NCBI GenBank assembly: GCA_045605345.1
Contig: JAZUPT010000016.1
Coordinates: 4,363-68,362, forward strand
Direction of reading: 5' to 3'
From: Candidatus Spyradenecus sp.
GTDB lineage: Bacteria > Verrucomicrobiota > Kiritimatiellia > RFP12 > DVOR01
DNA length: 64,000 nt
Of the stretch, positions 12,270 to 51,172 are shown one piece after another. A program made the translations under genes and the position numbers. Below the pieces are notes generated by a model. It made no database searches, was not told the origin of the DNA, and was given only the letters and a program-made list of their open reading frames with translations. Positions within the stretch are counted from its first letter, which is position 1, and each line of letters starts with the position of its first letter.

Positions 12270-12625
12270 GGGGGTGTAGAGGTGAATCGCCGTATGGAAG
12301 GTGGGCTTGAAAGTCGCCTGCAGTCCTCACCAGCCGAGGGTTTAACTGTCACAGAGGGCAGAAATAAGCCGCCGTGGTGAGGCGAGGGGACGGCTACTTC
12401 CCGTGCCATCGGCGAGGGATGATTCCCGTGTCTTCGGCGAGAGAGCATTCGGGGGTTCGGGGGGTACCCCCGTCGTTTGGTACCACTCTGGACAGCAGAT
12501 GGCTAAGAGACGGAGAGGGTGACGTGGGGGAGCACGCCGCCCCACACCCCTGCGGCAGGACTAGTCCTGCACGCTACGCATCCTAACGGATGCTTTTACT
12601 GGTGCTCACGAGGATGAAAAGAAAG
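12270..12625. repeat. mosaic intergenic repeat cluster A: two GTGARYCGCCG modules plus a three-hairpin module shared with 50.9 kb
   Basis: 12523-12614 (gtgggggagcacgccgccccacac ccctgcggcaggactagtcctgcacgctacgcatcctaacggatgcttttactggtgctcacgagga) is ~90% identical to 50887-50981. 12346-12375 ctgtcacagagggcagaaataagccgccg matches 51136-51165 ctgtcacaaaggcagaagtgagtcgccg and 43668-43690. There is no ORF longer than 77 aa in the 870-bp gap. Confidence 0.55.
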
Positions 12626-12765
12626 AGCTCTGGGGACGAAGCGCACAGCGACTGGTTAGAAGACGGCATTTATCGTAGCCACGGCCCACTGCGGCCGTAG
12701 TGCACTCTGAATAACGGGTGGTTGAAATGGACGAAGCGGGACTGTGGGTGGCTAAAATCTGGGCA

Positions 12766-12822
12766 TTATCTATCCTTAATCTATCTGATAGACGGGCCGC
12801 AGCCCGTCTGATCTATCCCTTA
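12766..12822. repeat. CTATC-flanked hairpin module (inverted copy of the core of the 38-kb tandem repeat)
   Basis: atctatccttaatctatctgatAGACGGGCcgcaGCCCGTCTgatctatccc is the reverse-complement homologue of ctatccataacctatctgacAGACGGGCcgttGCCCGTCTcatctatctctatccc at 38370-38420. Stems are identical and loops differ. Confidence 0.55.
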
Positions 12823-12986
12823 TAGGCTTCTGGGAGAGGCTCCTTCGGCACGGCACCGAGGTGGCGATTCGGAAGGTGGCACCCTATCCCGCGTTTAAGC
12901 CACTCAAAACGCCCTAATCCCCTTTACTTTTTCACGATTTTCTTGCCTTTCGCCTTCTTTTTTACTTCACGTTTTTTCTTTTTTAT

Positions 12987-12994
12987 TGTATACT
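12987..12994 (+). promoter_or_regulatory. putative extended -10 (TGTATACT) for pyrF
   Basis: tgtATACT lies ~30 nt upstream of the MADLIV start. It favours the ATG at 13024 (RBS aaagga 13009-13014) over the ORF-track start at 13006. Confidence 0.35.
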
Positions 12995-13023
12995 AAATGT
13001 GTTGAATGAAAGGATGCATTGTC

Positions 13024-13737
13024 ATGGCAGATTTAATTGTTGCACTTGATGTTTCGACCAAGGCAGAAGTCGCAGATGTGCTGCGTCGACTTGGGGATTC
13101 TGTCGATTTTTACAAAATTGGCCTTGAATTATTCTCGGCAGAGGGCCCGGATGTGGTGAAGTTGGTGAAAGATGCGGGCAAGCGCGTCTTTCTTGACTTG
13201 AAGCTTCACGACATTCCTCGCACGGTAGAACGCGCAGTGAAGTCTGGCGCGACCCTCGGCGTTGATTTGATGACCATTCACTCTACGGGTGGCAAGGCCA
13301 TGATTCGTGCAGCGGCAGAGGCGGCAGCGTCCTTTGGTGCGGCGGCACCGAAGATTTTGGCGGTGACGGCTTTGACCTCGCTTGACCAGGATGACTTGAC
13401 TGATTTGGGCATTACGCGTGCAATGCCAGACCAGGTGGAAGCAATGGGCTTGCTGGCGATTACCAACGGTGCCGACGGCATTGTGTGTTCGCCCAAGGAA
13501 GTGGCCAACATGAATAAGGTCTTAATCCCTGCGGCAAATGGTCGCAAGGTCGTCTTTGTCACCCCTGGCGTCCGTCCCGCAGGTGCCGCAGTGGGCGATC
13601 AGAAGCGCGTTGCTACACCCGCTGGCGCCGTGCGTGATGGCTCCACCCACTTGGTGGTGGGTCGTCCGATTCTTGAAGCAGTCGATCCCGTGGCGGCAGC
13701 AATTGCCATCCGCGCTGAGATGGACTCTGTCCGCTAA
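13024..13737 (+). CDS. pyrF: orotidine-5'-phosphate decarboxylase
   Basis: MADLIVALDV...FYKIGLELF...FLDLKLHDIP matches OMP decarboxylase motifs. The ORF track starts 18 nt earlier at 13006, but the RBS and promoter position favour 13024. Confidence 0.85.
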   Translation: MADLIVALDVSTKAEVADVLRRLGDSVDFYKIGLELFSAEGPDVVKLVKDAGKRVFLDLKLHDIPRTVERAVKSGATLGVDLMTIHSTGGKAMIRAAAEAAASFGAAAPKILAVTALTSLDQDDLTDLGITRAMPDQVEAMGLLAITNGADGIVCSPKEVANMNKVLIPAANGRKVVFVTPGVRPAGAAVGDQKRVATPAGAVRDGSTHLVVGRPILEAVDPVAAAIAIRAEMDSVR

Positions 13738-13745
13738 GGAGCGGC

Positions 13746-14195
13746 TTGAAAAAGTCGAGCACATTCGTTTCAAAGGGCACCCCAACGCCACTCGAAGTGG
13801 CGGGTGCCCCTGATTATGAAGTGCCAACAACTTACACCTCACACCTTCACCCGGCTGATTTACCGCGTGACTATGGCATGTCTGGCGCAGTGGGCGCTTA
13901 CGAAGTAAAGCCCCTCGCCGGATTTTTGCAAAAGACGCTCAATGCCTTAGAGCAACAGCTTGGCACGGGCGACTCGGCCGAAGCACTGGTCGTTGCGGCA
14001 TTAGACCATTTAATGCCCGCGGCAGAGCGTTATCGCCTCGCAGTAGAATCCGTGAGCGCAGGCATTATCACCCTCTCCCTCGCGCGCAAGGGTGATCGTT
14101 ATCTCTACAATCGAACCTTAGTCCCCAAACTCAAAACCGCATTAGCGCCACATTTAGGCGCGGTGCGCATCCAATTGACGGACCGCATGCGATGA
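13746..14195 (+). CDS. hypothetical protein (weak DUF721/DciA-like C-terminal pattern), translationally coupled to kdtA
   Basis: TTG start at 13746 is preceded by AAGGAG (13736-13741). The stop overlaps the kdtA ATG (ATGA). The N-terminus is disordered and there is no confident homology. A nested GC hairpin lies at 13773-13811 inside the putative 5' coding region, so the real start may be the ATG at ~13869. Confidence 0.4.
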   Translation: MKKSSTFVSKGTPTPLEVAGAPDYEVPTTYTSHLHPADLPRDYGMSGAVGAYEVKPLAGFLQKTLNALEQQLGTGDSAEALVVAALDHLMPAAERYRLAVESVSAGIITLSLARKGDRYLYNRTLVPKLKTALAPHLGAVRIQLTDRMR

Positions 14196-15487
14196 AATGG
14201 TTCCTCTATAACTTCCTTTTTACCATCGCTTACATTTGCATGATGCCCAAATTCCTGTGGCGTATGGCGCGACGTGGCGGTTATGTCAATCGCTTCGCCG
14301 ACCGCTTCGGATGCTATCCGCCAGAGATTTTGGCCCGCTTTAATGATGGTCGAAAGCGCTTTTGGATTCACGCGGTCTCCGTGGGCGAAGTGGCGGTGGC
14401 AGGCCAGCTCATGGAAGAACTGCGCCAACAGTCCCCCGACATCGCCTTCGTCCTCTCGGTGACGAGCAGTACAGGGTGGACGCAAGCGCAGAAACAGGTC
14501 CGCGACAATGACATTTTGATTCATAATCCATTGGATATGCCGCGCTGCGTCAAGCGCGCATTAGACGCCATCCGTCCAGAGGCCTACATCATCACAGAGA
14601 CCGAACTCTGGCCGAACATCATCCGTCTGGCAACCCAACGCGACATCCCTGTTTTCTTGGTAAATGCCCGTATCTCCGACCGAAGCGCGCCGGGATACCG
14701 CCGCTTGAAGTGTTGGTTCGGGCCTGTACTCAACATGATGACGCGCATCTATGCCCAGTCCGACCTTGATGCCCAGCGTCTCTGCGATGCAGGATGTGAC
14801 GCCGAACGCATCGAAGTCACCGGCTCCATGAAGTTTGACGTGGCCCATCGCAACGAAGCCAAAGAAGCCGAACTGCGCGACTATCTGACCAGCGCAGGCT
14901 TCTCCTCCAATGCACGCATTCTGCTCGGGGGCTCCACCTGGCCAGGCGAAGATGCCTTCCTTTTAAAGGTTTACGCCAAAGCTCGCGCGATTGACCCCAA
15001 CTTACGCTTAATCCTCGCCCCGCGCCACTTTGAAAAGGCCGACGCAGTGGAAGCAAACATCCGTGCAGCGGGCTTCACATGCCTCCGCCGTTCACGCGTA
15101 GCCACCCCCACCCCCATGCCAGAAGACACCGTTCTGCTCGCCGATACCACAGGAGAACTGATGGGGCTCTATGGCCTTGCCGACGTGGCATTTGTGGGTA
15201 AATCCCTCTATGAACATGGCGCTCAAAACATGATTGAACCCTGCCTCTGCGGATGTGCGACCGTAGTCGGCCCCAATACGGAAAACTTCCGTCCAGTGAT
15301 GAGCGACTTATTAGCACATGAAGCCATTTTGCAAGCCCCCGATGAAGCCGCGCTTGAAAAAACGTTGCTTGAGCTTTTGGAAGACCCCACCTCAGCGAAA
15401 GCCCTTGGTGGACGGAGTTCAAAAGCCGTCGCGTTACGTTGCGGTGTCACACCGCGTCTCGTTTCAGATTTGCTAAAGCGCATCTAA
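14192..15487 (+). CDS. waaA: 3-deoxy-D-manno-octulosonic acid transferase (Kdo transferase)
   Basis: N-terminal membrane anchor plus WIHAVSVGEV, and the C-terminal glycosyltransferase domain (VGKSLYEHGAQNMIEP), are typical of KdtA/WaaA. Confidence 0.85.
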   Translation: MKWFLYNFLFTIAYICMMPKFLWRMARRGGYVNRFADRFGCYPPEILARFNDGRKRFWIHAVSVGEVAVAGQLMEELRQQSPDIAFVLSVTSSTGWTQAQKQVRDNDILIHNPLDMPRCVKRALDAIRPEAYIITETELWPNIIRLATQRDIPVFLVNARISDRSAPGYRRLKCWFGPVLNMMTRIYAQSDLDAQRLCDAGCDAERIEVTGSMKFDVAHRNEAKEAELRDYLTSAGFSSNARILLGGSTWPGEDAFLLKVYAKARAIDPNLRLILAPRHFEKADAVEANIRAAGFTCLRRSRVATPTPMPEDTVLLADTTGELMGLYGLADVAFVGKSLYEHGAQNMIEPCLCGCATVVGPNTENFRPVMSDLLAHEAILQAPDEAALEKTLLELLEDPTSAKALGGRSSKAVALRCGVTPRLVSDLLKRI

Positions 15488-15536
15488 ATCGTGGAGCCTG
15501 CCTACATTCAACACCCCAAAGGAAAGTGAGACTGAC

Positions 15537-16742
15537 ATGTCAGAAGTCACATTAGAAAAAATCCGAGAAGCTGCCGAAGTCCTTAAAGGGATCGCCCGCC
15601 GGACGGATATGATCTATGCTCCCAAACTCTCCATCCGTTCTCAAGTCTATTTGAAAACCGAAAACCTGCAGATCACGGGTTCCTTCAAAGTGCGTGGCGC
15701 GTACTACAAACTCTCTACGCTCACCGATGAAGAACTCTCTCGCGGTGTGATTGCTTGCAGCGCAGGCAACCATGCTCAGGGCGTGGCATTAGGCGCGCAA
15801 CAGCGCGGCGCGAAGGCAATCATCTGCATGCCCGACATCGCACCGATTGCCAAGGTGGAAGCCACGAAGAGCTACGGTGCAGAAGTTCGCCTTGTGCCGG
15901 GCACTTACGATGATGCGAGCGCCTACGCTGCAAAGCTCTGCCGTGAAGAAAACATGACCTTCGTCCACCCCTTTGACGACCCGAATGTCATTGCGGGCCA
16001 GGGCACGGTCGGTCTTGAAATTTTGGAACAGCTCCCCGATGTGGAAGCAGTTATGATTCCCGTGGGTGGCGGCGGCTTAATCTCTGGTGTGGCCTATGCG
16101 ATTAAGCAACTCAAGCCAGACTGCAAGGTCTATGGCGTTGAAGCCGCAGAAGCAGCGAGTATGAAGCGCTCTGTAGAAGCGCAGGATCGCCTGACCCTCG
16201 CCTCTGCCAACACCTTTGCAGATGGTATCGCCGTGAAGCACCCTGGCAGCTTGACCTTCGACATGGTCAATAAGTACGTGGATGGCATCGTGACCGTATC
16301 TGAAGATGAAATCGCCGCCGCGATCCTCTTCTTAATTGAACAGCGCAAACTCGTCTGCGAAGGCGCAGGTGCTGTCTCTGTGGCCGCCATGATTTATGAC
16401 AAGGTGCCCGAGTTGCAGGGCAAAAAGGTCTGCTGTTTGCTCTCTGGTGGTAACATTGATGTCAACATCCTTAGCCGCGTGATTTATCGTGGTCTCCAGG
16501 CCAGCGGTCGCCGTACCGAAATTCGCCTCTGCCTGCCGGATAAGCCCGGTCAGCTCGCAGCCGTTTCTGAAATTGTCTCCAAGTGCGGTGGCAATGTCAT
16601 CAACGTGAGCTACGGCCCCTCCGCCATGGATACCGCCCTTGCCACCTGCGTGCTCAACCTGCAACTCGAAACCCGTGACTTCGTCCAGATTGGCGAAATC
16701 CATGGCGCACTTGAAGCGGCAGGCTATAACCTCTTACACTGA
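15537..16742 (+). CDS. ilvA: threonine ammonia-lyase (threonine dehydratase), short form with one C-terminal ACT-like domain
   Basis: GSFKVRGAYYKL, the PLP-lysine region, SAGNHAQGVA and GGGGLISG match the fold-type II PLP enzyme, with a C-terminal regulatory domain. Confidence 0.85.
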   Translation: MSEVTLEKIREAAEVLKGIARRTDMIYAPKLSIRSQVYLKTENLQITGSFKVRGAYYKLSTLTDEELSRGVIACSAGNHAQGVALGAQQRGAKAIICMPDIAPIAKVEATKSYGAEVRLVPGTYDDASAYAAKLCREENMTFVHPFDDPNVIAGQGTVGLEILEQLPDVEAVMIPVGGGGLISGVAYAIKQLKPDCKVYGVEAAEAASMKRSVEAQDRLTLASANTFADGIAVKHPGSLTFDMVNKYVDGIVTVSEDEIAAAILFLIEQRKLVCEGAGAVSVAAMIYDKVPELQGKKVCCLLSGGNIDVNILSRVIYRGLQASGRRTEIRLCLPDKPGQLAAVSEIVSKCGGNVINVSYGPSAMDTALATCVLNLQLETRDFVQIGEIHGALEAAGYNLLH

Positions 16743-16767
16743 TTCCCGTCAACACCGGAACCTTGAT

Positions 16768-17496
16768 ATGCTGAACCTGGAGAATGTCACCCTACTGTAC
16801 GCGCCGAACCGTGGCATCCAAGAGGCCTCCCTCTCGGTTGAACCCGGCGAAGTCATTGGCGTAGTCGGCGGCAATGGCGTCGGCAAAAGTACCTTGTTAG
16901 GATTAATTGCCGCGGCGCTTGTCCCGCAGTATGGCAGGGTTACACTCTCCTTAGCGGGAATTGGCGGACGCGTTCGCCGACTTCAGTCTGATATCGGCAT
17001 CGGTTATCGACGCCATGTCGGTTATCTCACTGAGTCGGCGCCCGTCTATGGCGAACTCACCGTAAAGCACTATCTCGCCTTCCGTGCACGACTTCATGGG
17101 GTGGGTCTCTTCCGTCTGCGTCGTCGATTGAACGAAGCAATGTTGCGCTGCGGCCTGCAACCCCATAAGAAGGAACTCCTTGGGCGACTTTCCCTGGGTC
17201 TCCAGCGTCGCGTAGCACTCGCAGAAGCACTGCTCTCTGCGCCAGCAGTGCTCGTCTTGGACGATCCATTCGTGGGCATTGATGCCGCCCAACGGAGCAC
17301 GATTGCCAATGTCATCCGTGAAGTCTCCACCCGTTCACACGTCTTCATCAGTGGCCATGACCCGCTCCTTTTGAAGGCCTGTTGCACACGGTTTGTCCTC
17401 ATTGAAAATGCACGCATCGTTGCGGACGACTTGGATGCCGACACCGCCATGAATCGGCTCTTACCCGAACCCCTTCGGAAGGAAACAGAAGCATGA
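16768..17496 (+). CDS. ABC transporter ATP-binding protein
   Basis: Walker A GGNGVGKST, signature LSLGLQRR and Walker B VLVLDDP. The start is placed at ATG 16768 (MLNLENV), just after the ilvA stop, whereas the ORF track begins inside ilvA. Confidence 0.75.
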   Translation: MLNLENVTLLYAPNRGIQEASLSVEPGEVIGVVGGNGVGKSTLLGLIAAALVPQYGRVTLSLAGIGGRVRRLQSDIGIGYRRHVGYLTESAPVYGELTVKHYLAFRARLHGVGLFRLRRRLNEAMLRCGLQPHKKELLGRLSLGLQRRVALAEALLSAPAVLVLDDPFVGIDAAQRSTIANVIREVSTRSHVFISGHDPLLLKACCTRFVLIENARIVADDLDADTAMNRLLPEPLRKETEA

Positions 17497-18245
17497 TTTT
17501 CTTCACACTCTTACGACGGGAATTCCCGCAATTGGTGCGCTCGGGGCACGGCATTGTGCCGATTTTCCTCTCGTTGGCAGGCGCCAATGCACTCTTGGTA
17601 AGTTTTTTAATGAAGGCCGAAGGCACCACCGAGACCCTGCCCTCATTGTGGGGATTAGCGGTTGCATTTGGGCTCCCCTTCTTGGCAGCAGTGGCGGCAT
17701 CAAGAGGGTTTACACAAGACCGTGAAAACGGCATGCTCCGATTGATGTTCTCAACGCCCGTACGTGCGCGGTGGTGGGTTTTGGGAAAGGTCGGCGCAGC
17801 GTGGATGCTCTGCCTCTTTTATCTCTTAGGGATGGCGACCTCTTGCTATGTGCTCCTGCGGTGGCTCCTCCCCGAAGATGCGCAACTCTCTTACTCATGG
17901 ACAGGCTTCCTCTTCGCAGGTGGCGCACTGATGCTACAGGCTCTCTTATGGTGTAGCCTTGGAACCTTTGTCTCCCTCTTTTCACGAAGCTCTGCCTCCA
18001 CCTTCCTCTTTGCATTGGTCAGTTGCCTCTTCGCACCGCCTTTGGTGGTATTCGCTTTAACGACCTTGACCACTGGAAGCATGACGCAATGGCCGTGGTT
18101 CCCCTTACAAACGATGGTGTATGACTGCGCGAGTGGGCTCATTGATGTCCGCTTAGCAGTTGGGTGCCTCACTGGCTCACTCGTGTTAATTTACGCATCG
18201 GGCATGGTATTTGACGCATTACGACTCTGTGCGACTGAACGATAA
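17493..18245 (+). CDS. ABC-2-type transporter permease (6 TM)
   Basis: Hydrophobic polytopic protein overlapping the ABC ATPase stop by 4 nt (ATGA). Confidence 0.55.
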   Translation: MIFFTLLRREFPQLVRSGHGIVPIFLSLAGANALLVSFLMKAEGTTETLPSLWGLAVAFGLPFLAAVAASRGFTQDRENGMLRLMFSTPVRARWWVLGKVGAAWMLCLFYLLGMATSCYVLLRWLLPEDAQLSYSWTGFLFAGGALMLQALLWCSLGTFVSLFSRSSASTFLFALVSCLFAPPLVVFALTTLTTGSMTQWPWFPLQTMVYDCASGLIDVRLAVGCLTGSLVLIYASGMVFDALRLCATER

Positions 18246-18253
18246 TCTGAAAC

Positions 18254-19186
18254 ATGACGCATCTCGAACAGATTAAGACCTATCTTCAGAACGCCTTTTC
18301 AACTGGGCGCCCTGCACAGGCGTATATCATCATTGGACCTGTCTACCAAGATGGTGCCGCGCTTGCAACATGGATTGGCTCCCAACTCATCGGAGAGATG
18401 CCCTCAATCGCAGATCGTGCGCATCCAGACATGCCATGGTTTGAGCCAGAAAAGGTCAGTCGCATTATTGACGTGGAGATGATGCGCGACCGAATCCTAC
18501 CGATGGCGCAACAATCCTCACTCTCTGGTGGATGGAAAGTGCCCGTCATTGTCTCTGCAGACCGCATGAAAGCAGAGGCGGCGAATGCCTTCCTAAAGAC
18601 CTTGGAAGAGCCCCCACCACGCACCCTCTTTTTACTCTTAGCCGACTCCCTCGCGGATATGTTACCTACGATTATCTCTCGTAGCCAAGTCATCCACGTG
18701 GGCGGTACGCGTGAACTGGATGAGCCGTGGCGCACGACGGTATTGGATTTACTCACCAACATCCGTGAGAAATCCGCCTTACTGGACACCGTTCGCGCAG
18801 AAGTGCTCTGTGGCATCTTGGAAGATATGGCTGATCGCGCAGGAAAAGCGGTACGAGAGGAACGCAAAGACAGCCCCATCGATGATGATGCCGACACCTT
18901 AAAGGCGCTCATTGGAGCAAAGACAAAATCGTGGCGCAACGACCTACTCCTCTTAATAGAACGCTGGATGCGTGATTTGGTTCGCCTCAAAGCCTCTGGC
19001 GAAGCGACTGACGTCCCCCTTAACTTCCCCGAACATCGAACAGTTTTACAACAACGTGCCGCGTGTTATACCCTCGCGAAACTATTAGAAAACCTCACGA
19101 TGTTAGAACAATTTACCGTTCATTTGGAGCGCAATATCTCCCCCGCCCAGGTGCTCCCCTATTGGATGGATCGCTTTTATCTCTAA
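18254..19186 (+). CDS. holB: DNA polymerase III delta-prime-like subunit
   Basis: ANAFLKTLEEPPPRTLFLLLA is the clamp-loader TLEEPP box. The P-loop is degenerate, consistent with delta'. Confidence 0.65.
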   Translation: MTHLEQIKTYLQNAFSTGRPAQAYIIIGPVYQDGAALATWIGSQLIGEMPSIADRAHPDMPWFEPEKVSRIIDVEMMRDRILPMAQQSSLSGGWKVPVIVSADRMKAEAANAFLKTLEEPPPRTLFLLLADSLADMLPTIISRSQVIHVGGTRELDEPWRTTVLDLLTNIREKSALLDTVRAEVLCGILEDMADRAGKAVREERKDSPIDDDADTLKALIGAKTKSWRNDLLLLIERWMRDLVRLKASGEATDVPLNFPEHRTVLQQRAACYTLAKLLENLTMLEQFTVHLERNISPAQVLPYWMDRFYL

Positions 19187-19194
19187 GGAGAATT

Positions 19195-19632
19195 ATGAAA
19201 TTACTCTTACTCAATGGCCCCAATCTTCGCCTTTTAGGCACGCGTGAGCCCGATATTTACGGTTCTTTCACCCTCGCCGATGCGGAAGCCTTAGCGAAGA
19301 CCACCGCAGAAAAGCACGGTGCCACGTTGGATGCGTTCCAAAGTGACATCGAGGGCGAACTCGTCTCGGCAATTGGTCAAGCGCGTGGCGTTTATGATGG
19401 CATCATCATCAATCCCGCCGCCTACACGCACACCTCCGTGGCGCTGCGTGATGCCATCGCCGCCGCCAGCCTCCCAACCGTAGAATTGCACATCTCCAAC
19501 ACCCACAAGCGCGAAGCCTTTCGTCACGTGAGCTACACCGCCCCCGTCTGCGTCGCGCAGTTGCAGGGATTTGGCTTGATTGGTTACGCACTTGCAGTGG
19601 AAGGCCTTGTCGCTTATTTGAACCAACATTGA
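19195..19632 (+). CDS. aroQ: 3-dehydroquinate dehydratase, type II
   Basis: MKLLLLNGPNLRLLGTREPDIYG...INPAAYTHTSVALRDA matches the type II DHQase signature. The ORF-track start at 19063 lies inside holB; the real start is ATG 19195 with RBS aaggag. Confidence 0.85.
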   Translation: MKLLLLNGPNLRLLGTREPDIYGSFTLADAEALAKTTAEKHGATLDAFQSDIEGELVSAIGQARGVYDGIIINPAAYTHTSVALRDAIAAASLPTVELHISNTHKREAFRHVSYTAPVCVAQLQGFGLIGYALAVEGLVAYLNQH

Positions 19633-19645
19633 TTAAGGAAAACTT

Positions 19646-21354: not shown

Positions 21355-21394
21355 TCCCACTTTCTCTATTCTATCTCACTAAAGGAGTACAACA

Positions 21395-36811: not shown

Positions 36812-36822
36812 TCCACCCACTT

Positions 36823-38100: not shown

Positions 38101-38118
38101 GGCGAAACCCGCTACACA

Positions 38119-38669
38119 GCCGCTTATCTATCCCTCACCTATCTGAGCGGCAGGCCATCCTCCTCAAACAGCGCAACCTCATGCATCAGTGAAGGCGAAG
38201 TGAAGCGCTTTCTCCACTGAAGGGGCCCCATTAGGCGCCCGCGGCGAGGGGCTTATCTATCAATCACCTATCTGAGCGGCAGGCTGTTGCCTGCCTTATC
38301 TATCCTGAAGCAAGAAAGCCGCCATCGATGGATAATAAAAGCATAGAAGATAGATGAGACGGGATAGAGATAGATGAGACGGGCAACGGCCCGTCTGTCA
38401 GATAGGTTATGGATAGGTTATCAGATAGGTTATGGATAGATTATTTAAGGGGACTCGCAGGTGGTCGCCTCATGGTATCTGCGGCGCAGCCGCTTATCTA
38501 TCGATCACCTATCTGAGCGGCAGGCTGTTGCCTGCCTTATCTATCCCGAGGCAAGAAAGTTTCCATCAATGGATAGATAAAAGCATAGAAGATAGATGAG
38601 ACGGGATAGAGATAGATGAGACGGGCAACGGCCCGTCTGTCAGATAGGTTATGGATAGATTATTTAGGG
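38119..38669. repeat. tandem array of ~190-bp CTATC/GATAG-rich units (two near-identical full copies with 239-bp period, plus a partial third) in a convergent intergenic region
   Basis: Copy 38252-38450 and copy 38491-38669 are >95% identical. A partial copy lies at 38119-38175. Each unit has hairpin GGCAGGctgttGCCTGCC, hairpin AGACGGGCaacgGCCCGTCT, and direct GATAGATGAGACGGG x2 and CAGATAGGTTATGGATAG x2-3 motifs. Confidence 0.8.
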
Positions 38670-38821
38670 CTCCTCGCCACGCCACCACTTCACACTCTGA
38701 AGCTATCCTCCTCTCTATCACCGCGGCCTCGTGGCGAGACGGGGATGCGGCGCAGGACTGCATGTAAAGTTTCCGCTATCCAAATGGGCCCACGAAGGCT
38801 GTGGGACACGCGATGCGGGGA

Positions 38822-38852
38822 TAAAAAGAGAGCCGCATCCGAGGATGCGGCT
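38822..38852 (-). terminator. rho-independent terminator of acpP
   Basis: Minus strand reads agccgcatcc-tcg-ggatgcggct followed by ctctttttat, 30 nt after the acpP stop. Confidence 0.6.
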
Positions 38853-38882
38853 TGTTCTCTTCCGTACTTTGAGTACCAACGC

Positions 38883-42089: not shown

Positions 42090-42132
42090 CTCCGCCCCCT
42101 TTGTTTGTCGTTGCGAGAATGGTAATTATCGC

Positions 42133-42312: not shown

Positions 42313-42352
42313 CTGACTCTCTTTCTTTCTGTAAGCTTCTCGCTATTATGCT

Positions 42353-43355: not shown

Positions 43356-43420
43356 GCACATAATTGTAACACAAAGTGCGCGCGCAATGCAAATGAGGGC
43401 ACCGAGGAGAGGTGGGAGGA

Positions 43421-43695
43421 TTACATGGGGGCGACGCCGCTCGTGGTTAGCGATCATAAACCATAAAGATTAGAGCAGCGATGAGACCTCCGAAGGCACG
43501 CCCCTTAGCATATGGCCACTTACAGACCGTCGCTTTTCTGCGCCCCCGCTCCCCCAGTAGTGTGATAATGATGCTCCCCAGTCACTGGTCTAAAGGGCCC
43601 ACCTAATGACGGGGGGCACCCTGCGAAGGGACACATGGGAGAAGGCCCCGAGGAGCTCCCCTGCTAAGGGGACAGAAATAAGCCGCCATTTCTCT
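43421..43695. repeat. intergenic region B carrying degenerate copies of the dispersed repeat modules
   Basis: 43425-43452 catgggggcgacgccgctcgtgg corresponds to gtgggggcgacgccgcccccac (50887). 43668-43690 ggacagaaataagccgcc corresponds to gggcagaaataagccgccg (12354). Confidence 0.4.
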
Positions 43696-43728
43696 GCGCT
43701 CCCTATAACAAGAGCGCTTGCGGTGGGA

Positions 43729-45015: not shown

Positions 45016-45027
45016 GAAAAAGAGTCC

Positions 45028-45474
45028 TTAAATGCCTGTGGATCCGAATCCACCTGTGCCACGTGCTGTGCAATCTGCTATTGCGCCCTCAGCAATCCCA
45101 ACGCGTAACACAGGCGCAATCACTAACTGTGCAATACGCATGCCCTGCGTAATCTCAAAGGCCTCCTGACCCAAATTGACGAGCAAGACCTTCACTTCTC
45201 CACGATAGCCCTCATCAATTGTGCCTGGGGCATTGATAACGGTGACGCCATGCTTAATTGAAAGCCCACTCCGCGGACGCACCTGCCCCTCTGTATTCGG
45301 GGGCAAGGCAATGCGCAGCCCCGTGGAGACTGCGGCGCGCTCGCCGGGTTGCAAGAGACGCGCCTCATCGGCGCAGAGATCCATCCCAGCATCACCAGGA
45401 TGGGCGTAAAAGGGAATCTGCGCAGTTGGGGTGAGCCGTTCAACGCGCAATGTCATCGGCTTAAAACTCATCAC
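45028..45474 (-). CDS. dut: dUTP diphosphatase
   Basis: PGDAGMDL, PRSGL, and the GTIDEGYRGEV motif 3. The start may be the internal MTLRV. Confidence 0.85.
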   Translation of the reverse strand: MMSFKPMTLRVERLTPTAQIPFYAHPGDAGMDLCADEARLLQPGERAAVSTGLRIALPPNTEGQVRPRSGLSIKHGVTVINAPGTIDEGYRGEVKVLLVNLGQEAFEITQGMRIAQLVIAPVLRVGIAEGAIADCTARGTGGFGSTGI

Positions 45475-45482
45475 ACACTCCT

Positions 45483-47966
45483 TTAGTTCGCAGATTTGAA
45501 TTTTATGGTAAAGGTACCTGAAGAATTCCCGCCGTTATGTCCCGAACAATGGATGCGCAAGACGTAATCCTCTAGGCCTGCACGGAGTTGATTCACGCGT
45601 AACTGGTAAACATTATTACTCGTGCGCCCCCCTGTATAACCCTCATGCACATCCTCTGCCACCTTCTTTTCACCTTCAAAGAGCTCTACCGAGTGAATCT
45701 GAAGGGCATGCCGGCCAGATGTCCAGCAAATAGCAACTTCATAAACCCCCGCACGGGTGATATACTCAGAGACACTGAAATCAAGGTGCGTTTTTCCTTT
45801 GACGCCATTGAGGCTCCACGGCACCCCTGCGGTAGAAGCGAAAGCTTCGGGCCACAGCTTATGCACCTGCACGGCCAAGGAGAGCGCCTCAGAGACACGG
45901 CTCATCAACTTTTTCTTACGATTCGGCGAGAGGACACCGCGATTTAAGAAGCGCGTATTCAGGGCATCCAAGGCGGGGCTAGGATTGCGTTTTTCCGCCT
46001 CTGCGTCAAAGAAGAGCTGCCAACGCTTCAAGTAGTAGTCACGCATCAAGCCTGCGAGCTGACGGTGGGCGTAATCATTCAACGAACCTCCGCGCCCGCT
46101 CCACGTGGTATACATACGGCGAATTGCCTTCGCGGCGGCCTCACCACCTGTGCGACGAGCAATCTCCTCACGCCATTCAAGCGTCCAACGCGGTTCGCAG
46201 GCGAGGAGTGCATCCATTTCACGAATAGCCTCAAGGAAATAGGCCGATGCGGCACCATCCTGACCCTGAGCCAACAACGGACGCGCCAAGTCAGAGAGCG
46301 CCTGACGTGTGGCATCAATGAGATCATAACGGAAGGTTTCTTGTTGCAACAACTCCGGATTCTCCTTCGCGGCATTGGCGAGTTGGAGTGCGGCGCGAAG
46401 CGTATCCTTAGCGGAATAGTACATCTCACCGCTCGCCCACGAAGAAGCCTTGCGCGCCGTCCAGGAAGGTTTCGCACAAAAGATGCTTTCGGTGCAACCC
46501 TCTTGGTCACGCAAGGGTTTATAGACCGACTTCGTGAGCAGTTTTAAGGCCTGAAGAATGCGCGGCGTAACCGTGCCATAACGGCGGCGCGCGTAAGCCT
46601 TCAACCATGTATCATAATCCTGGGTGGACATCACCTTTTCACGTGGCATGAAGAAACGTTCGGTGAACAATTCGTAGAAGAGCGGATTCGTTTCAAGCCC
46701 CTCAGAGAGCAAGCCGTAGCCCACCATTGTGGAAGCGCCCGATTGTCGCGTCAATTCACCGAGCTTCATCAACATCTCCACGCCACCATAGAGACCGTGA
46801 TTGCCACCAAAGTTCAACAACTCACACCACACCCACGGGACCCCCTGGAACGAACGGTTGTAACGTTGGCCATTCGCCTGATCCTTCACAAGGGCCTCAA
46901 TGAGGGCGTACCGAGGATCAAGGCCGGCGAGGAGTTCGGCGCGAGGATTGCCATGCCATGCTTGGATGACCCAGATGGCGCCCGGCGAGGCGAGCTGTTG
47001 AGCGGCCTGAACGGCGCGAGCGCAAGCGGTGACATCTACCCCTGCGGTGCTGCCACCCTCATGGAAAAGGTCACCCGCGAAGGCATCGGCGCGTTCAATG
47101 CCGTAGACCGTGAGCAGATTCTTGTACCAGATGGCGGCAATCTTTGCATACGTTTCACTATTGGGCAAGAGCAAGGTCGGACGCACAAAGCCATCGACCC
47201 AACGCCCCTGATTCACGAATTTCGCATCGACATATTCCGTCTTGGAGAGATACTGCGGTAAATCGTGGGGCAAGAGACCCACAAACCCCTGCAAAATCGG
47301 TTTCATGCCGAGCGCCTTTGTCTCAGCAACAATGTAACGGCCCAACTCGGCATCCGCATCAATACGCTCCTGAGAGAGCGGGCCGCCGAGACCTTCTAAG
47401 TTACCCATATTCCACCATGCGGCGGCGGCTTCATCAGGGATAAAGGCGGCGATGCGTTCTTCGGGGTAACCCAATTCGCGCAAGGTGAGTTGCCACACCT
47501 TCGGGAGACCCGCTTGGACGAGCGGCATCTCAAAGCCATACAAAGCGAGACGGTCAATCTCCTCGCGCCATTCGGGTTTGCCCCAAAAGGCCATGGTGTA
47601 AGAGAGCGTGCAATAATTGTAGGCAACCGTGCGCGTAAAGGCCGGTGTGTAGTGATGCGTCTTGCGCGGTTGGGGCATCGGCACATTCAGACGGTTGCCA
47701 CACCACGACCAGTGCGCCTGCGCCACATCACGGAGGTAGCAACCCAAACCTGCGGCAGCCAAGCGTTTGTCGGGCGCGATAATCTGGATATTGCTTCCGC
47801 CTGCGGGCGCCACAGTGATGCCATCGGCAGATTCATCTACCGTAAACTGCACGCGTTCCCTCAAGGAGGGCGAGATACGCGCGGCGAGATCCGTCAACGC
47901 ATCAGCGTATGACCACCCTGCGGCAAATAGTGCCACGGCGGCGATTAGGGTTCGAAAAACGTTCAT
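45483..47966 (-). CDS. secreted glycoside hydrolase family 89 alpha-N-acetylglucosaminidase with C-terminal ~130-aa beta-sandwich (CBM-like) domain
   Basis: Signal peptide MNVFRTLIAAVALFAAGWSYA. WWNMGNLEGLGGPLS...GMKPILQGFVGLLP parallels the human NAGLU WGRMGNLHTWDGPLP...GMTPVLPAFAGHVP block, and the NAGLU N/TIM/C architecture is present. Confidence 0.8.
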   Translation of the reverse strand: MNVFRTLIAAVALFAAGWSYADALTDLAARISPSLRERVQFTVDESADGITVAPAGGSNIQIIAPDKRLAAAGLGCYLRDVAQAHWSWCGNRLNVPMPQPRKTHHYTPAFTRTVAYNYCTLSYTMAFWGKPEWREEIDRLALYGFEMPLVQAGLPKVWQLTLRELGYPEERIAAFIPDEAAAAWWNMGNLEGLGGPLSQERIDADAELGRYIVAETKALGMKPILQGFVGLLPHDLPQYLSKTEYVDAKFVNQGRWVDGFVRPTLLLPNSETYAKIAAIWYKNLLTVYGIERADAFAGDLFHEGGSTAGVDVTACARAVQAAQQLASPGAIWVIQAWHGNPRAELLAGLDPRYALIEALVKDQANGQRYNRSFQGVPWVWCELLNFGGNHGLYGGVEMLMKLGELTRQSGASTMVGYGLLSEGLETNPLFYELFTERFFMPREKVMSTQDYDTWLKAYARRRYGTVTPRILQALKLLTKSVYKPLRDQEGCTESIFCAKPSWTARKASSWASGEMYYSAKDTLRAALQLANAAKENPELLQQETFRYDLIDATRQALSDLARPLLAQGQDGAASAYFLEAIREMDALLACEPRWTLEWREEIARRTGGEAAAKAIRRMYTTWSGRGGSLNDYAHRQLAGLMRDYYLKRWQLFFDAEAEKRNPSPALDALNTRFLNRGVLSPNRKKKLMSRVSEALSLAVQVHKLWPEAFASTAGVPWSLNGVKGKTHLDFSVSEYITRAGVYEVAICWTSGRHALQIHSVELFEGEKKVAEDVHEGYTGGRTSNNVYQLRVNQLRAGLEDYVLRIHCSGHNGGNSSGTFTIKFKSAN

Positions 47967-47995
47967 GATCTCATTTCCTTTCCGTAGAACAAAAC

Positions 47996-50041
47996 TTAGT
48001 TTAAGCCATACGTCTTACGCAACGTACGCATCTCATCGCGGAGCAAGGCCGCGCGTTCAAATTCCAAATCCTCAGCGGCCTTTCGCATCTCCGTCTCCAA
48101 TTGCCGCAAGGCGTCCAACACCTCTTCTGTACTCAAGTCGCCCTCAGCAACCTTCAGTGCGCCCGTGTCACGTTTTTTACTCCGCGGGGCGGGATCATTC
48201 TCTGCGCCTGGCATGACCTGCAAGTCTTCATTAATGGCGCGCTTAACCGAACGCGGCACGATGCCATGTTCGGCATTGTATGCCTCCTGCTTCTCACGGT
48301 GGCGACGCGTAATCTCCTTGAGCGCGGCGATGGCGGGCGTCTCCTCATCTGCGTAAAGAATCACCTTGCCACCCGTATTACGTGCACAACGTCCTGCAGT
48401 CTGCACCAACGAGGTCTCGCTACGCAAGAAGCCTTCCTTATCTGCATCCAGGATTGCCACGCGGGTCACCTCGGGGAGGTCAAGCCCTTCGCGGAGAAGA
48501 TTGACGCCGATGAGCGCATCAAAGTCGCCCCTTCGCAAGCGTCCCAAAATCTCTACGCGGCCAATCGCATCAATATCCGAGTGAAGATATTCGCACCGAA
48601 TCCCCACATCCGTGAGATACTGCGCCAAATCCTCACAAGAACGTTTCGTGAGCGCGGCGACCAAGGTGCGCCCCCCCTGCTCTGCGGCGGCACGAATCTC
48701 CTCCATCACGTCATCTATCTGATTCGCGAGCGGGCGCACCTCCACAATCGGATCAAGCAAGCCCGTGGGGCGAATCACCTGTTCAGCCTCAAACTCCGCT
48801 ACGGCGCGTTCGTGAGGGCCTGGGGTGGCAGAGGTGTAGAGAATGCGCGGCATGCGTTCATCAAACTCATCAAAGGTCAGCGGGCGGTTATCCTTCGCCG
48901 ACGGCAAACGGAACCCATTATCCACAAGCACCTGTTTACGCGCTTGGTCACCATTGTACATCGCGCGAATTTGCGGTAAAGTCACGTGGCTTTCATCAAT
49001 GATACAGAGAAAATCAGGGCCAAAATAGTCTACTAAGGTTGGCGGAGGGATGCCTGGACCGCGACCTGCTAAGGGCGCAGAGTAGTTTTCAATCCCCGTG
49101 CAGTAGCCCATCTCCGCGAGCATAGCGAGATCGTACTCGGTGCGTTGGCGGAGGCGTTGCTCCTCCAAGAGCTTACCATTGGCGGCGAGCTCGGTGAGAC
49201 GTTCTTTGAGTTCTGCCTTAATGCGATCCACGCCGTCGAGCAATTGCGAACGCGGCATGACAAATTGTTTTGCGGGAGAGATGAGGCACGATGGCAAAGA
49301 GCCGGTGACTTTGCCCGTGGTTGCGTTGAAACTCTGGAGCGACTCCACCTCATCGCCAAAGTAATTCACGCGGATGCCCTCTGTGGCATAAGAAGGGAAG
49401 ATATCCACCACATCCCCTCTAACGCGAAAGACGCCAGGGCGGGGTTCGTAGTCATTCCGTTGGTATTGGATTTCTGTCAGTTGCGCAAGGAGGTCATCGC
49501 GGGGCAATTCAATGCCAGGGCGCAACGAAATCATCAAACCACGATAGTCCTCTGGCGAGACCAAACCGTAGATACACGACACCGAAGCAACGATGATGAC
49601 ATCCTTACGGCCTAAGAGGCTATGCGATGCAGCAAGGCGAAAACGTTCGAGGTCCTCATTGATGCTGGCATCCTTTTCGATGTAAGTATCGGTCTGAGGG
49701 AGGTAGGCTTCGGGTTGGTAGTAATCGTAATAAGAGATGAAGTACTCGACCGCGTTGTCGGGGAAAAAGGCCTTTAGCTCTGCGTAGAGTTGGGCGGCGA
49801 GGGTTTTATTGTGGGAGATGACGAGTGTGGGGCGCTTAAAGCGGGCGATCACATTGGCCATCGTAAAGGTTTTGCCGCTTCCCGTCACACCACGAAGAAT
49901 CGCACGACGCGCCCCCTTCTCAAAGCCCTCCACTAAGGTGTCGATGGCTTCAGGTTGGTCACCTGTTGGCGCAAAAGCAGAAGCCAAGCGAAATTCCGCA
50001 GGGGCTCCATTCACTTCATTTTCAAATTGCGTTTCCAACAT
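47996..50041 (-). CDS. uvrB: excinuclease ABC subunit B
   Basis: GVTGSGKTFTMAN, beta-hairpin YYDYYQPEAY, helicase motifs, and the C-terminal UVR domain (EAQLAPRATK-like coiled tail). Confidence 0.95.
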   Translation of the reverse strand: MLETQFENEVNGAPAEFRLASAFAPTGDQPEAIDTLVEGFEKGARRAILRGVTGSGKTFTMANVIARFKRPTLVISHNKTLAAQLYAELKAFFPDNAVEYFISYYDYYQPEAYLPQTDTYIEKDASINEDLERFRLAASHSLLGRKDVIIVASVSCIYGLVSPEDYRGLMISLRPGIELPRDDLLAQLTEIQYQRNDYEPRPGVFRVRGDVVDIFPSYATEGIRVNYFGDEVESLQSFNATTGKVTGSLPSCLISPAKQFVMPRSQLLDGVDRIKAELKERLTELAANGKLLEEQRLRQRTEYDLAMLAEMGYCTGIENYSAPLAGRGPGIPPPTLVDYFGPDFLCIIDESHVTLPQIRAMYNGDQARKQVLVDNGFRLPSAKDNRPLTFDEFDERMPRILYTSATPGPHERAVAEFEAEQVIRPTGLLDPIVEVRPLANQIDDVMEEIRAAAEQGGRTLVAALTKRSCEDLAQYLTDVGIRCEYLHSDIDAIGRVEILGRLRRGDFDALIGVNLLREGLDLPEVTRVAILDADKEGFLRSETSLVQTAGRCARNTGGKVILYADEETPAIAALKEITRRHREKQEAYNAEHGIVPRSVKRAINEDLQVMPGAENDPAPRSKKRDTGALKVAEGDLSTEEVLDALRQLETEMRKAAEDLEFERAALLRDEMRTLRKTYGLN

Positions 50042-50061
50042 AACGACCTTCCCCGCTATTA

Positions 50062-50101
50062 TCGCATAAATACGGGGGCTATCGCAATAGCGAAAGCCCC
50101 C
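50062..50101 (-). terminator. stem-loop terminator downstream of the nitroreductase-like gene
   Basis: gggggct-atcgcaatagcgaa-agccccc, followed on the minus strand by gtatttat. Confidence 0.45.
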
Positions 50102-50122
50102 TCAAGAGGTCAAATTAAGCTG

Positions 50123-50731
50123 TTAGCGGATGCCGATGCGCATGCCGTAGAGCACTTCATCCGCATCACACTCCAAGGCTCGCGCCAATTTCGCGCGATC
50201 AATGGAGCCCAAGAAGACGCAGTTCCACTGTTGGGACGTGCAGTAGAGATAGGCATTTTGACCCACGAAGCCACAGTCCACCTGCGCATAGGCGGGGCTC
50301 TGGTCATCCTTGTCATAGGTGAAGATGAGCATCACCGAAGCGCCATTCAACTGATCAGAGAGGTCCTCGCGCGTCTCTTCGCGTTCGAGTTCGTTCTCCT
50401 CCTCATCCCACTCATAGAGACCTTCTGCCGTGAGGACGGCGATATCAATCTCCTGACGATTCATCGCCGAGGGGGCGGTGCGCTTGCCATCCGGACGGGT
50501 AATGCCATTGGCCGCCCAGAGGAGATTGGCCAACTGCTGATGCGTCGGCGCAGCACCCGTTGTACGGCGGCTCGTTTTACGTGCAGCCAACGCATCCAAG
50601 AGCGGCATCCCGCCACTCTTCTCAGGTGTCGGTAGACGGATATCGCCTGCATCATCGGCCAACACTGGTGCGGCAGCGAGGGTAAGTGCCGCCAAAGCGG
50701 CGAGACAACAAGTGCGGAACAAAGTTTTCAT
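50123..50731 (-). CDS. secreted nitroreductase-family protein
   Basis: Signal peptide MKTLFRTCCLAALAALTLAAAPVLA. RTAPSAMNRQ and LLWAANGI match the nitroreductase (PF00881-like) pattern. Confidence 0.55.
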   Translation of the reverse strand: MKTLFRTCCLAALAALTLAAAPVLADDAGDIRLPTPEKSGGMPLLDALAARKTSRRTTGAAPTHQQLANLLWAANGITRPDGKRTAPSAMNRQEIDIAVLTAEGLYEWDEEENELEREETREDLSDQLNGASVMLIFTYDKDDQSPAYAQVDCGFVGQNAYLYCTSQQWNCVFLGSIDRAKLARALECDADEVLYGMRIGIR

Positions 50732-50884
50732 CGTTTGTATCCTTTCGCATTACGAGTTCACACACGGGGTGACAACGCCTTCAGTATAGCAAAGCATTAG
50801 CGCAGGCTAATGCGACTTATTCCATCAATTTCACGCCTGTATACAAGACGTTACAGGTGGAGCGCCAAAGGAAGGCGGTGGATG

Positions 50885-51172
50885 ATGTGGGGGCGACGCC
50901 GCCCCCACACGCCCCTGCGGCAGGACTGAGTCCTGCACCCTACGCATCCTGACGGATGCTTTTACTGGTGCTCACGAGGAGGAAGCAGAAGTGAGCCGCC
51001 GAGGAGGTGACCCGTGGGGTGAGGCGGGGATGGCAGGCTACGGCCTGCCAATCAGATAGGTGAGCGGCTAACGCCGCAAAGCCGCGCAAGCGCGGCCCTC
51101 CTGAGGTGATGAGGTACATAGCCAGCTCACACTTGACTGTCACAAAGGCAGAAGTGAGTCGCCGAGGTTATA
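50885..51172. repeat. mosaic intergenic repeat cluster C (three-hairpin module, two GTGAGYCGCCG modules, inverted CTATC-hairpin module)
   Basis: 50887-50981 is homologous to 12523-12614. 50984-51030 and 51136-51170 carry cagaagtgagYcgccgagg. 51034-51066 ggcaggctacggcctgccaatcagataggtgagcgg is the reverse complement of cacctatctgagcggcaggctgttgcctgcc in the 38-kb tandem unit. Confidence 0.55.

Follow-up and report, generated by a model that had tools for sequence, protein, structure and literature searches.

The window, by which we mean the whole 64,000-nt stretch of DNA analysed here, comes from an uncultured ruminant-gut Kiritimatiellia bacterium, and is ~95% identical to the DNA of MAG RGIG7486. 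Self-BLAST of the window finds repeats, far above chance, that are confined to four intergenic gaps (gaps 1 to 4, from left to right). The genes that flank them are all housekeeping genes, no transposase or IS is among the genes adjoining any module copy in the window or the related loci, and in all of the DNA examined (the window and loci of the same and related species, the loci being denoted by L and a number) the gap modules are extragenic. The first-pass annotation had described the gaps as built from one set of four modules, a through d, in different orders and orientations. Pattern matches and self-BLAST locate all four modules where it had placed them (Table 1), and the differences it quoted between the loops of different copies are correct. 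The repeats are indeed present only in these gaps, but what gap 3 shares with the others is limited to module c and half of hairpin a; module d occurs in both orientations, but A-B and c in one only; and the list of modules lacked two families, E and F.

Table 1. Repeat modules in gaps 1 to 4 (positions in the window)
Feature	Position	Strand	Components or evidence
C long form + flanking repeat sequence	12289..12392	+	core TTAACTGTCAC..CAGAAATAAGCCGCC at 12342-12373
Module F	12440..12500 (approx.)	+	G5-TA-C5 palindrome 12460-12471, then CGTCGTTTGGTACCAC..CTGGACAGC
Module A hairpin, degenerate copy	12524..12545	+	pattern match and A-B alignment
Module B	12546..12625	+	B1 12555-12570, B2 12578-12593, tail 12594-12613, purine-rich end
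E, predicted GTAG-tagged REP	12665..12704	+	GTAG + CCACGGCC-CACTGC-GGCCGTAG; 5′ extension GGCATTTATC
Single D unit, D2 type	12760..12829	+	CTATC-rich flanks, hairpin AGACGGGC-CGCA-GCCCGTCT 12790-12809; z = -4.4
Truncated D1	38118..38156	+	limited to 5′ flank and 5′ stem arm; similarity stops at expected loop start
D doublet 1	38247..38449	.	D1 (+) hairpin 38278-38295, 64-nt spacer, D2 (-) hairpin 38377-38396
D doublet 2	38488..38668	.	D1 hairpin 38519-38536, D2 hairpin 38619-38638
5′ flank + first half of hairpin A	43402..43440	+	matches L006:402-440, L017:13625-13663
C short form	43667..43687	+	repeat family and pattern match
Complete A-B	50861..50984	+	5′ flank, A 50887-50908, B1 50920-50936, B2 50944-50959, tail 50960-50979
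C short form, abutting B	50985..51004	+	self-BLAST and pattern match
Single D unit, D1 type	51011..51080	-	hairpin GGCAGGC-TACG-GCCTGCC 51032-51049; z = -3.5
C long form	51128..51167	+	TGACTGTCAC..CAGAAGTGAGTCGCC; self-BLAST and pattern match
Second predicted E-type REP	51166..51203	+	GTGG + CACCGCC-CACCGC-GGCGGTG; R1 30.4 bits, E = 1e-7

The families that reside together in the gaps, A-B, E, D1/D2, C and F, are neighbors in a loose syntax in which A-B is followed by F and then by one or two E units, all co-oriented. A-B is a three-hairpin unit of ~100 nt, with stems of 9 bp (A; GTGGGGG-n8-CCCCCAC in gap 4), 7 bp (B1; GCAGGAC..GTCCTGC) and 6 bp (B2; GCATCC-n4-GGATGC) and with an unpaired tail, TTTTACTGGTGCTCACGAGG, after B2. 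The two B copies of the window are 92% identical over 85 nt, and bp 50,884–50,984 fold as ssDNA with -30.3 kcal/mol (z = -5.2). Similarity of the half-A in gap 3 to its relatives stops 3 nt into the 3′ arm. There are 18 copies of A-B in ~160 kb of same-species DNA. In a scan of a genome collection, 21-mer matches in Pedobacter and a Hydrogenedentota MAG were dismissed as coincidence; they lie inside sigma-54 activator genes, where they encode the GAFTGA loop.

Module d (CTATCTGA-NN-hairpin) occurs seven times in the window, where 0.04 occurrences are expected by chance. It had been divided into two separate hairpins, but these, D1 and D2, belong to a single family (79–80% identical) and are oriented inversely to each other, with 7–8 bp stems in the variants GGCAGGC and GACGGGC and ssDNA folds of z = -2.7 to -4.7. 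Gaps 1, 2 and 4 contain it, and so do two paralogous loci, L006 and L007, the first of which carries an array (L006:6120-6600). Gap 2 contains a tandem duplication of 241 nt (38251-38421 and 38492-38663), the first unit of which is D doublet 1 with its GATAG arrays; doublet 2 folds as a single long imperfect hairpin in the manner of a REPIN (ssDNA, -36.9 kcal/mol, z = -6.8). Module c, CAGAARTRAGYCGCC, has four copies (at 12359, 43673, 50986 and 51149; 0.02 expected by chance), all on the + strand, and is unstructured (fold z = -0.1); its long form in gap 1 is 85% identical to L004:582-684 of MAG RGIG7486. Module F, an addition to the four modules first described, also has copies in L005, L009, L012 and L013, and in some of its copies GGGGA-GCGYAGCG-TCCCC replaces the short palindrome. 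We do not claim F and D2 as CGTC-REPs, because their stems are without A/T first pairs and the CCA tail.

Module E consists of an 8-bp stem with a 6-nt loop and bears a GTAG or GTGG tag in all 16 aligned copies. Besides its two copies in the window it has 17 in other loci, and ~100 kb of sister-species DNA contain none; as an unbiased sample, the window has a density of two E and two A-B copies per 64 kb. Covariance model R1 scores the E unit of gap 1 at 60.7 bits (E = 3e-17). The unit in gap 4 has a new compensatory stem variant and is without the usual 5′ extension, module C abutting it instead; the stem of its ortholog (L047:9475-9514) is CCACCGCC/GGCGGTGG.

Base pairing, orientation and a possible RNA role

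The stems of E are found in the variants CCCCTGCC, CCACGGCC, CCCCCTGC and CCACCGCC, each with a matching 3′ arm. In the E alignment 96% of the cells are paired and four of the eight pairs have changed on both sides; none of 500 shuffles reaches its score, and slid controls collapse. The corresponding figures for D are 95% and three of eight pairs. The D and E hairpins are thus shown to keep their pairing through compensatory changes. The first-pass annotation took identical stems with variable loops as the signature of selection on structure, but by itself this combination is no such signature. In A-B no stem pair covaries among the 18 copies, and the unpaired 21-nt tail, where B is conserved most strongly, is invariant to the degree that the stems are. 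The loops are the most variable positions of A-B (seven variants of the B2 loop in 18 copies), and it is only in the two most divergent copies that stems have changed less than linkers (3 of 88 against 10 of 76; p = 0.04; the copies are not independent). A young repeat conserved for its sequence, with free or hypermutable loops, would show this pattern. Because the tail is conserved and covariation is absent, a sequence-specific role for A-B is as likely as a structural one.

The compensatory changes, together with pairs in E and D that are G·T on one strand (G·U in RNA), could also mean that the hairpins are under selection at the RNA level and that the modules are structured RNAs, such as small RNAs, 3′-end stabilizers, terminators or attenuators. 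For many REPs an action as RNA is presumed (PMC3733652), and B2 followed by TTTT obtains a weak intrinsic terminator score. However, A-B at 12524-12625 lies between two divergent promoters and that at 50887-50984 is antisense to both flanking genes, and over 11 independent loci the unit is co-directional, divergent or convergent with its neighbors with no preference. Orientation is thus independent of the flanking genes, and this lack of consistency argues against an RNA role. In addition, the most conserved part of B is not paired, the real terminators are separate from the modules (38830-38853 and ~51207-51240), and the modules match no Rfam family: when the whole window was scanned at the gathering thresholds only a tRNA-Lys passed, and in permissive scans of the four gaps nothing came near threshold. 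We consider such an RNA-level explanation distinctly unlikely. With respect to GC skew, 10 of 14 independent A-B copies are on the C-rich strand (p ~0.09), an orientation bias that is suggestive only.

Strain variation and larger elements in the gaps

The modules are not peculiar to the window, but recur at many other same-species loci between housekeeping genes. Even among strains that are 93–99% identical, orthologous gaps differ in their sets of modules through tandem duplication, module swaps and replacement of the whole content. Gap 1 of the window differs in content from L008, L012, L016 and L001–L003. In gap 2, L027 has one 241-nt unit where the window has two, and L018/L037 have a different filling; in gap 3 the window matches L037, while L038, L040, L043 and L045 carry other repeats and an AT-rich element. 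The content of gap 4, whose orthologs were reached through a 97%-identical homologue, differs from that of L047, which has a half-A, as does L048. The metagenome contigs L012, L016 and L048 end inside repeat gaps. All of the observed strain changes could be recombinational; among the loci compared there is no clean pair of empty and filled sites with defined ends, and transposition itself is therefore not demonstrated.

It might then be asked whether hairpin conservation and mosaic structure are mutational or recombinational by-products of intrastrand template switching, SbcCD-type tip cleavage with imprecise repair, and slippage, involving neither a dedicated enzyme nor selection. The variability of the loops would fit, as would the variation in number of the 241-nt unit between strains, breaks at or near loops in the window (38139-38155 and 43426-43440), the half-A of L047 and L048, chimeric E units that join the arms of two stem variants (L012:10500-10539 and L014:1-39) and E-B fusions in L005 and L015. 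The breakpoint evidence, however, is anecdotal (~8 cases) and partly explained by a 10-mer, CTGCGGCAGG, that is common to E and B, and such processes do not explain near-identical units at many unlinked loci. They are compatible with the REP-type reading favored below, which they would supplement as a secondary process and not supplant; as a full account we think them improbable.

Since they are small, non-coding, multi-copy and intergenic, the modules might instead be MITEs, deletion derivatives of DDE-type ISs that a cognate IS transposase mobilizes through their terminal inverted repeats, and the D doublet and an inverted A-B pair in L008 do resemble long inverted repeats. Against this, the single units A-B, E and C have no terminal inverted repeats, the polymorphic sites show neither target-site duplications nor defined termini, no cognate IS is seen beside any copy, and the modules, like the AT-rich core discussed next, have no match in 72,556 plasmids, in 50,697 phages, in viral contigs or in E. 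coli. A MITE origin is highly improbable.

In other strains an AAA_14/DUF4143 gene and an AT-rich core are inserted in the corresponding gaps. The core of these related strains is ~520 nt long and has three iterons and three DnaA-box-like TTATCAACA sites. It is conceivable, although in our judgment rather unlikely, that A-B and C belong, as flanks or scars, to a larger mobile or replicative element without coding capacity, solo copies being what remains after loss of its core. In four to five loci (L008, L009, L012, L013, L014) A-B lies directly beside the core's GATAAAAG end, the core of L012 and L013 has a C-like AACTGTCGC..AAGCAGGCGAAA at its left end, an inverted A-B pair brackets the core in MAG RGIG7486 at the position of the window's gap 1, and the core occupies gap 3 of MAG-type strains. 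Most A-B copies, on the other hand, have no core nearby (~9 of 13 independent loci), the window is without core sequence, L038 has a core without A-B, and D and E are left unexplained. Copies of A-B are also >90% alike and the cores only 76–87% alike, and the two therefore have different histories. A further possibility, which we regard as very unlikely, is that A-B, C and the iteron/DnaA-box core make up an undescribed non-coding origin-like element that moves or recombines without RAYT, by being broken and rejoined at hairpin tips. If so, the variable loops and the half- and chimeric hairpins would be footprints of that reaction, not neutral decay.

Relation to known extragenic repeats

The gaps probably contain a population of extragenic repeats of the REP/REPIN/BIME kind that is specific to this lineage, non-coding and built on hairpins. 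Their reading as a dispersed, modular, extragenic and non-coding family is supported. Their designation as uncharacterized BIMEs agrees with the lack of Rfam, plasmid, phage, viral and E. coli matches and with the arrays of D doublets, but their kind is a known one. The repeats are confined to one species cluster, and only A-B is found in the sister species as well (87% identity).

By its sequence, module E fits the definition of the GTAG REPs described by Di Nocera et al. 2013 (PMC3733652), which comprises an unpaired tag adjoining the stem, stem sub-families and G·T pairs. REPs of this super-family have palindromic stems of 6–13 bp, a range that the stems of E, D, A, B1 and B2 all fall into, and are extragenic with >100 copies per genome. 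They are present in the PVC group, where Opitutus terrae has an abundance of them in several families (PMC3733652). As in these, the GTAG/GTGG tag of E is unpaired and directly 5′ of an 8-bp G+C-rich stem, there are sub-families whose stems differ in mutually complementary residues, G·T pairs occur occasionally, and the repeat is extragenic, species-specific and coexists with other repeat families. Unlike them, E has a conserved ~27-nt extension, TTAGAAGMCGGYATTTATC, 5′ of the tag and a conserved 6-nt loop (CACTGC), and its units are head-to-tail, an arrangement that is rare for REPs (PMC3733652), rather than head-head or tail-tail. No RAYT with E units on its flanks was found. The tag is limited to E; modules A, B, C and D are untagged, and the CTAC that lies 5′ of the B2 stem has the wrong polarity for a REP tag.

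The D1-D2 doublets resemble the REPINs that are linked to RAYT transposases (Bertels & Rainey 2011; PMC3116915, PMC3337134) in that two related, inverted hairpin units, 64 nt apart, form one long fold and recur at two or more unlinked loci, and a RAYT with inverted flanking repeats is present in sister species; neither the head-to-tail E nor A-B has this organization. The doublets differ from REPINs in the unlike stems of their two hairpins (GGCAGGC and GACGGGC), in having CTATC/GATAG arrays rather than a GTAG tag as flanks, in their tandem amplification, and in that no RAYT is linked to them in the window's species. Like the enterobacterial BIMEs (summarized in Nunvar et al. 2010; PMC2817692), the gaps are extragenic mosaics of clustered hairpins with other short conserved motifs between them, and the regular spacing, alternating orientation and tandem amplification of D in gap 2 and L006 are those of BIME-2. 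The A-B/F/E strings, in contrast, are co-oriented, and several unrelated families share one gap. A blastn comparison with 5,426 E. coli genomes gave no match to the modules, and the resemblance is therefore one of kind and not of sequence family. IHF, gyrase and Pol I are the known partners of BIMEs.

The mosaic intergenic regions of Neisseria are called NIMEs. There, dRS3/CGTC-1 repeats are interleaved with other families (PMC3733652). The gaps studied here are likewise large intergenic regions of several short repeat families in variable order that vary between strains. Their sequences are unrelated, and no counterpart is seen in the window's species of the 20-nt dRS3, which punctuates the Neisseria array and serves as a phage integration site, nor of its phage link.

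Several points stand against the REP-type reading: no RAYT is linked to the repeats, only E is tagged, E is arranged head-to-tail and A-B shows no covariation. A tblastn search with a sister-species RAYT found no Y1 transposase in the window or in ~400 kb of same-species loci, and a RAYT flanked by gap modules, the partner that defines REPs, was not found in the DNA searched. Sister species do have RAYT genes, bordered by inverted repeats; in L022, from a relative at 84% identity, the RAYT is directly after acpP, and homologues of it (P0002 and P0003) occur in metagenomes that also contain the window's species. We do not link these genes to the gap modules, because none of the loci of the window's species has the repeats that flank them, and the one module in common, G (L009:385-435), is small and unrelated.

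If the repeats are of the REP type, the units would spread as ssDNA hairpins by means of a HUH/Y1 (RAYT-like) transposase that acts in trans from another place in the genome, which is most plausible for E and the D doublets. Clustered arrays would then expand, contract and be rearranged as copies recombine or as replication slips between them. Stems would be kept because the hairpin is what is recognized, possibly also by templated correction within the palindrome, while the loops would be unconstrained or be sites of breakage, which would account for their variability and for modules truncated at hairpin tips. Any use by the host, through binding of gyrase or nucleoid proteins or protection of RNA 3′ ends, would probably be secondary.

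No description of REP/REPIN/BIME-type repeats in Kiritimatiellota was found in a literature search. Understanding of this class of elements is unchanged by our results; what the repeats do is document REP/REPIN/BIME-type elements in this phylum, an uncultured gut lineage. They mark sites of genome difference between strains and of breaks in metagenome assemblies, and could be used in strain typing, in judging the contiguity of MAGs and in locating hot spots of rearrangement and insertion.

Hairpin families in the intergenic gaps

All of the modules described in the first-pass annotation are present, on direct reading of the sequence, in the four long non-coding gaps of the window (gaps 1 to 4, see table). 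When the gaps were compared with the window by self-BLAST, repeat matches fell only within gaps, with the same outcome against all of the loci compared (L numbers; related strains, MAG RGIG7486 or sister species). Module C occurs four times against a shuffled expectation of 0.02, and the flank plus stem of module D seven times against 0.04. Single-stranded DNA folding backs the hairpins of A-B (z = -5.2) and of D (z = -2.7 to -4.7) and detected no structure in C. The genes flanking the four gaps are ordinary housekeeping genes (MoxR ATPase/pyrF, M16 peptidase/acpP, nadD-like gene/aminotransferase and nitroreductase/PEPCK).

A-B spans ∼100 nt: hairpins A, B1 and B2 are followed by an unpaired tail that does not vary (TTTTACTGGTGCTCACGAGG) and then by a purine-rich end. 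The earlier argument that identical stems with differing loops signify selection on structure is weak for this family, as no stem pair covaries among 18 aligned copies; the unpaired tail has been conserved to the same degree as the stems. Variation is greatest in the loops (seven variants of the B2 loop). The two copies that diverge most, including one in L039 from a sister species (87% identity), are related to each other and have fewer changes in stems than in linkers (3/88 vs 10/76, p = 0.04).

Compensatory stem changes do support the structural argument for families D and E. D1 and D2, the hairpins flanked by CTATC/GATAG, belong to a single family, oppositely oriented, and their stems differ by two compensatory changes; they pair as inverted doublets, which fold into a single long hairpin (z = -6.8), and the doublets lie in ∼241-nt tandem units both in gap 2 and at L006, an unlinked locus. 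Module E, which the first reading overlooked, consists of TTAGAAGMCGGYATTTATC, GTAG or GTGG, and an 8-bp stem with a CACTGC loop. Its stem has at least four variants, each matched by its own 3′ arm; pairing holds in 96% of cells, both sides have changed in four of the eight pairs, and no shuffle reached the observed score. A covariance model finds two E copies in the window and 17 more in loci of its species; in sister species, ∼100 kb of DNA gave a single marginal match, in L044 (13.7 bits, E = 0.095). The modules follow the order A-B, then F (in the window, a unit with a G5-TA-C5 palindrome), then one or two E units, all co-oriented, in gaps 1 and 4 and in L006, L007, L008, L012, L013, L014, L017 and L047; L015 carries a tandem string of E-B fusions.

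Coordinates of repeat modules and associated features (window positions unless a locus is named)
Feature	Position	Remarks
Gaps 1 to 4	12136-13005, 38101-38882, 43356-43728, 50732-51257	
E copies	12665-12704, 51166-51203	
Tip-type truncations	38139-38155, 43426-43440	
22-nt array	54521-54608	four tandem units
tRNA-Lys(ttt)	54234-54309	bounds gap of 22-nt array
LamG/CotH gene, 1655 aa	55165-60132	bounds gap of 22-nt array
61-nt tandem units ×4 (GACCCTGCTGGGGGAGCGGGGGGCGCAGCGGTGTGGCGGCCTACTAAGCGT)	L038:4575-4800	fill gap 3, MAG-type strains; related to module F
AT-rich core copies	L008:2585-3375, L012:10685-11152, L013:1-600, L014:225-815, L009:1-185, L038:5010-5530	
AAA_14/DUF4143 gene plus 267-333-aa protein	L038:10953-13507, L040:3454-4656, L043, L045	MAG-type strains
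GCAGTTACTCTGCCAAAAA/AAATCAAATCCATTGGATTTCA arrays	L016:14770-14935, L034:280-560	
Sister-species RAYT genes	L022:3830-5430, L028:1-1400, L034:585-1676	PF01797
Rejected module B 21-mer matches	L010:5878-5898, L011:5404-5424	Pedobacter, Hydrogenedentota MAG

Gap contents compared between strains

The position of gap 1 holds an AT-rich segment of ∼850 nt bracketed by an inverted A-B pair in RGIG7486 and tandem E units in two JGI contigs (L002 and L003), and in L001 the neighbouring gene differs and there are no repeats. In gap 2 the 241-nt unit is present twice in the window vs once in L027, and the filling in L018 and L037 is unrelated to that of the window; L018 matches the window at 99% identity next to acpP and at 95.8% next to the peptidase gene, and for L037, a longer locus on the same contig, the two values are 97.8% and 96.8%. 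L037 keeps the window version of gap 3, in place of which L038, L040, L043 and L045 have the four 61-nt units and an AT-rich core, with an additional AAA_14/DUF4143 gene in L040. In gap 4, L047 retains the outer E unit and the nitroreductase promoter and has the order E-E-B-A-C-halfA, unlike that of the window. Several metagenome contigs end within repeat gaps. The repeat gaps coincide with points of insertion and rearrangement.

In MAG-type strains, repeat-rich gaps also contain an AAA_14/DUF4143 ATPase gene beside one for a 267-333-aa protein without any Pfam match. This insertion adjoins acpP or the aminotransferase gene, and synteny with the window stops at that point.

Breaks in truncated or chimeric modules tend, in a small sample, to fall at hairpin tips. 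Besides the two truncations in the window, a half-A is carried by L047 and L048, the two arms of E chimeras come from different stem variants, and E-B fusions occur in L005 and L015. Together with the hypervariable loops, such breaks could reflect breakage or template switching at the tips.

An AT-rich core and other arrays

Strains of the window's species carry, outside the window, multiple copies of a non-coding AT-rich core of ∼520 nt, which often adjoins A-B and in other strains fills the position of gap 1 or gap 3. The blocks conserved among core copies comprise a CACACT..AGTGTA hairpin, three CCAATTTCGCY iterons, three TGTTGATAA sites (TTATCAACA, DnaA-box-like), a GCCGCT-GTAG-CGGAG hairpin and GATAAAAG repeats, an anatomy that looks like that of a replication origin; it has no match in Rfam, plasmids or phages.

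The window itself contains four tandem units of AAGTTTGTAACAAACTGrrwTT, each with the palindrome GTTTGTAACAAAC, in an AT-rich gap (1.2 kb, GC 0.45); the units resemble an operator or iteron array. Arrays of a ∼27-nt motif (GCAGTTACTCTGCCAAAAA) and a 22-nt tandem (AAATCAAATCCATTGGATTTCA) occur at two other loci, one upstream of a transketolase-like gene ∼2.5 kb past the window's left end and the other adjoining a RAYT contig from the same JGI sample.

Distribution, class and spread

Among bacteria and archaea, at one genome per species, a 21-mer of module B has six sites in one organism, the water-buffalo colon MAG "Kiritimatiellae bacterium RGIG7486" (GCA_017558005.1), whose locus L008 is orthologous to window 7761-15210 (∼95% identity). 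Six more contigs of the window's species came from a metagenome scan, and a search of viral contigs found the modules on none. Matches in Pedobacter and a Hydrogenedentota MAG, members of unrelated phyla, were rejected as coincidence, since there the invariant 21-mer lies within sigma-54 activator genes and encodes the GAFTGA loop, and this reading frame is not open in module B.

The BIME/REP-like reading was largely right in kind, its identical-stem argument for A-B excepted. In anatomy the repeats fit the definitions in the literature. A REP is a small palindrome; an unpaired GTAG tag, sub-families of stems and G·T pairs are often seen, as are dimers or clusters of the units (PMC3733652); REPINs are inverted REP pairs, probably mobilised by RAYTs, the REP-associated Y1/HUH transposases (PMC3337134); and BIMEs are REP arrays of alternating orientation (PMC2817692). 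Kiritimatiellia belong to the PVC group. REPs have been described in this group and are abundant in Opitutus terrae (PMC3733652). A terminator or RNA role is argued against by the orientation of the modules, which is independent of the genes, and by their location between divergent promoters.

RAYT genes with flanking inverted repeats occur in sister species (84-87% identity). The flanks are multi-hairpin repeats of ∼125 nt with further copies close by, a layout resembling a TIRtron/REPIN. The L022 gene, which has an in-frame TAG after codon 124, directly follows acpP, the position of gap 2 in the window. These flanking repeats are absent from the loci compared of the window's species, and a Y1 transposase was not found in the window or the examined loci of that species, so we only infer that the repeats would be mobilised by a RAYT-type enzyme. 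The modules add a new, lineage-specific member to the REP/REPIN/BIME class; the comparisons show them to be dispersed, with hairpins maintained in D and E, and subject to rapid recombinational reshuffling.
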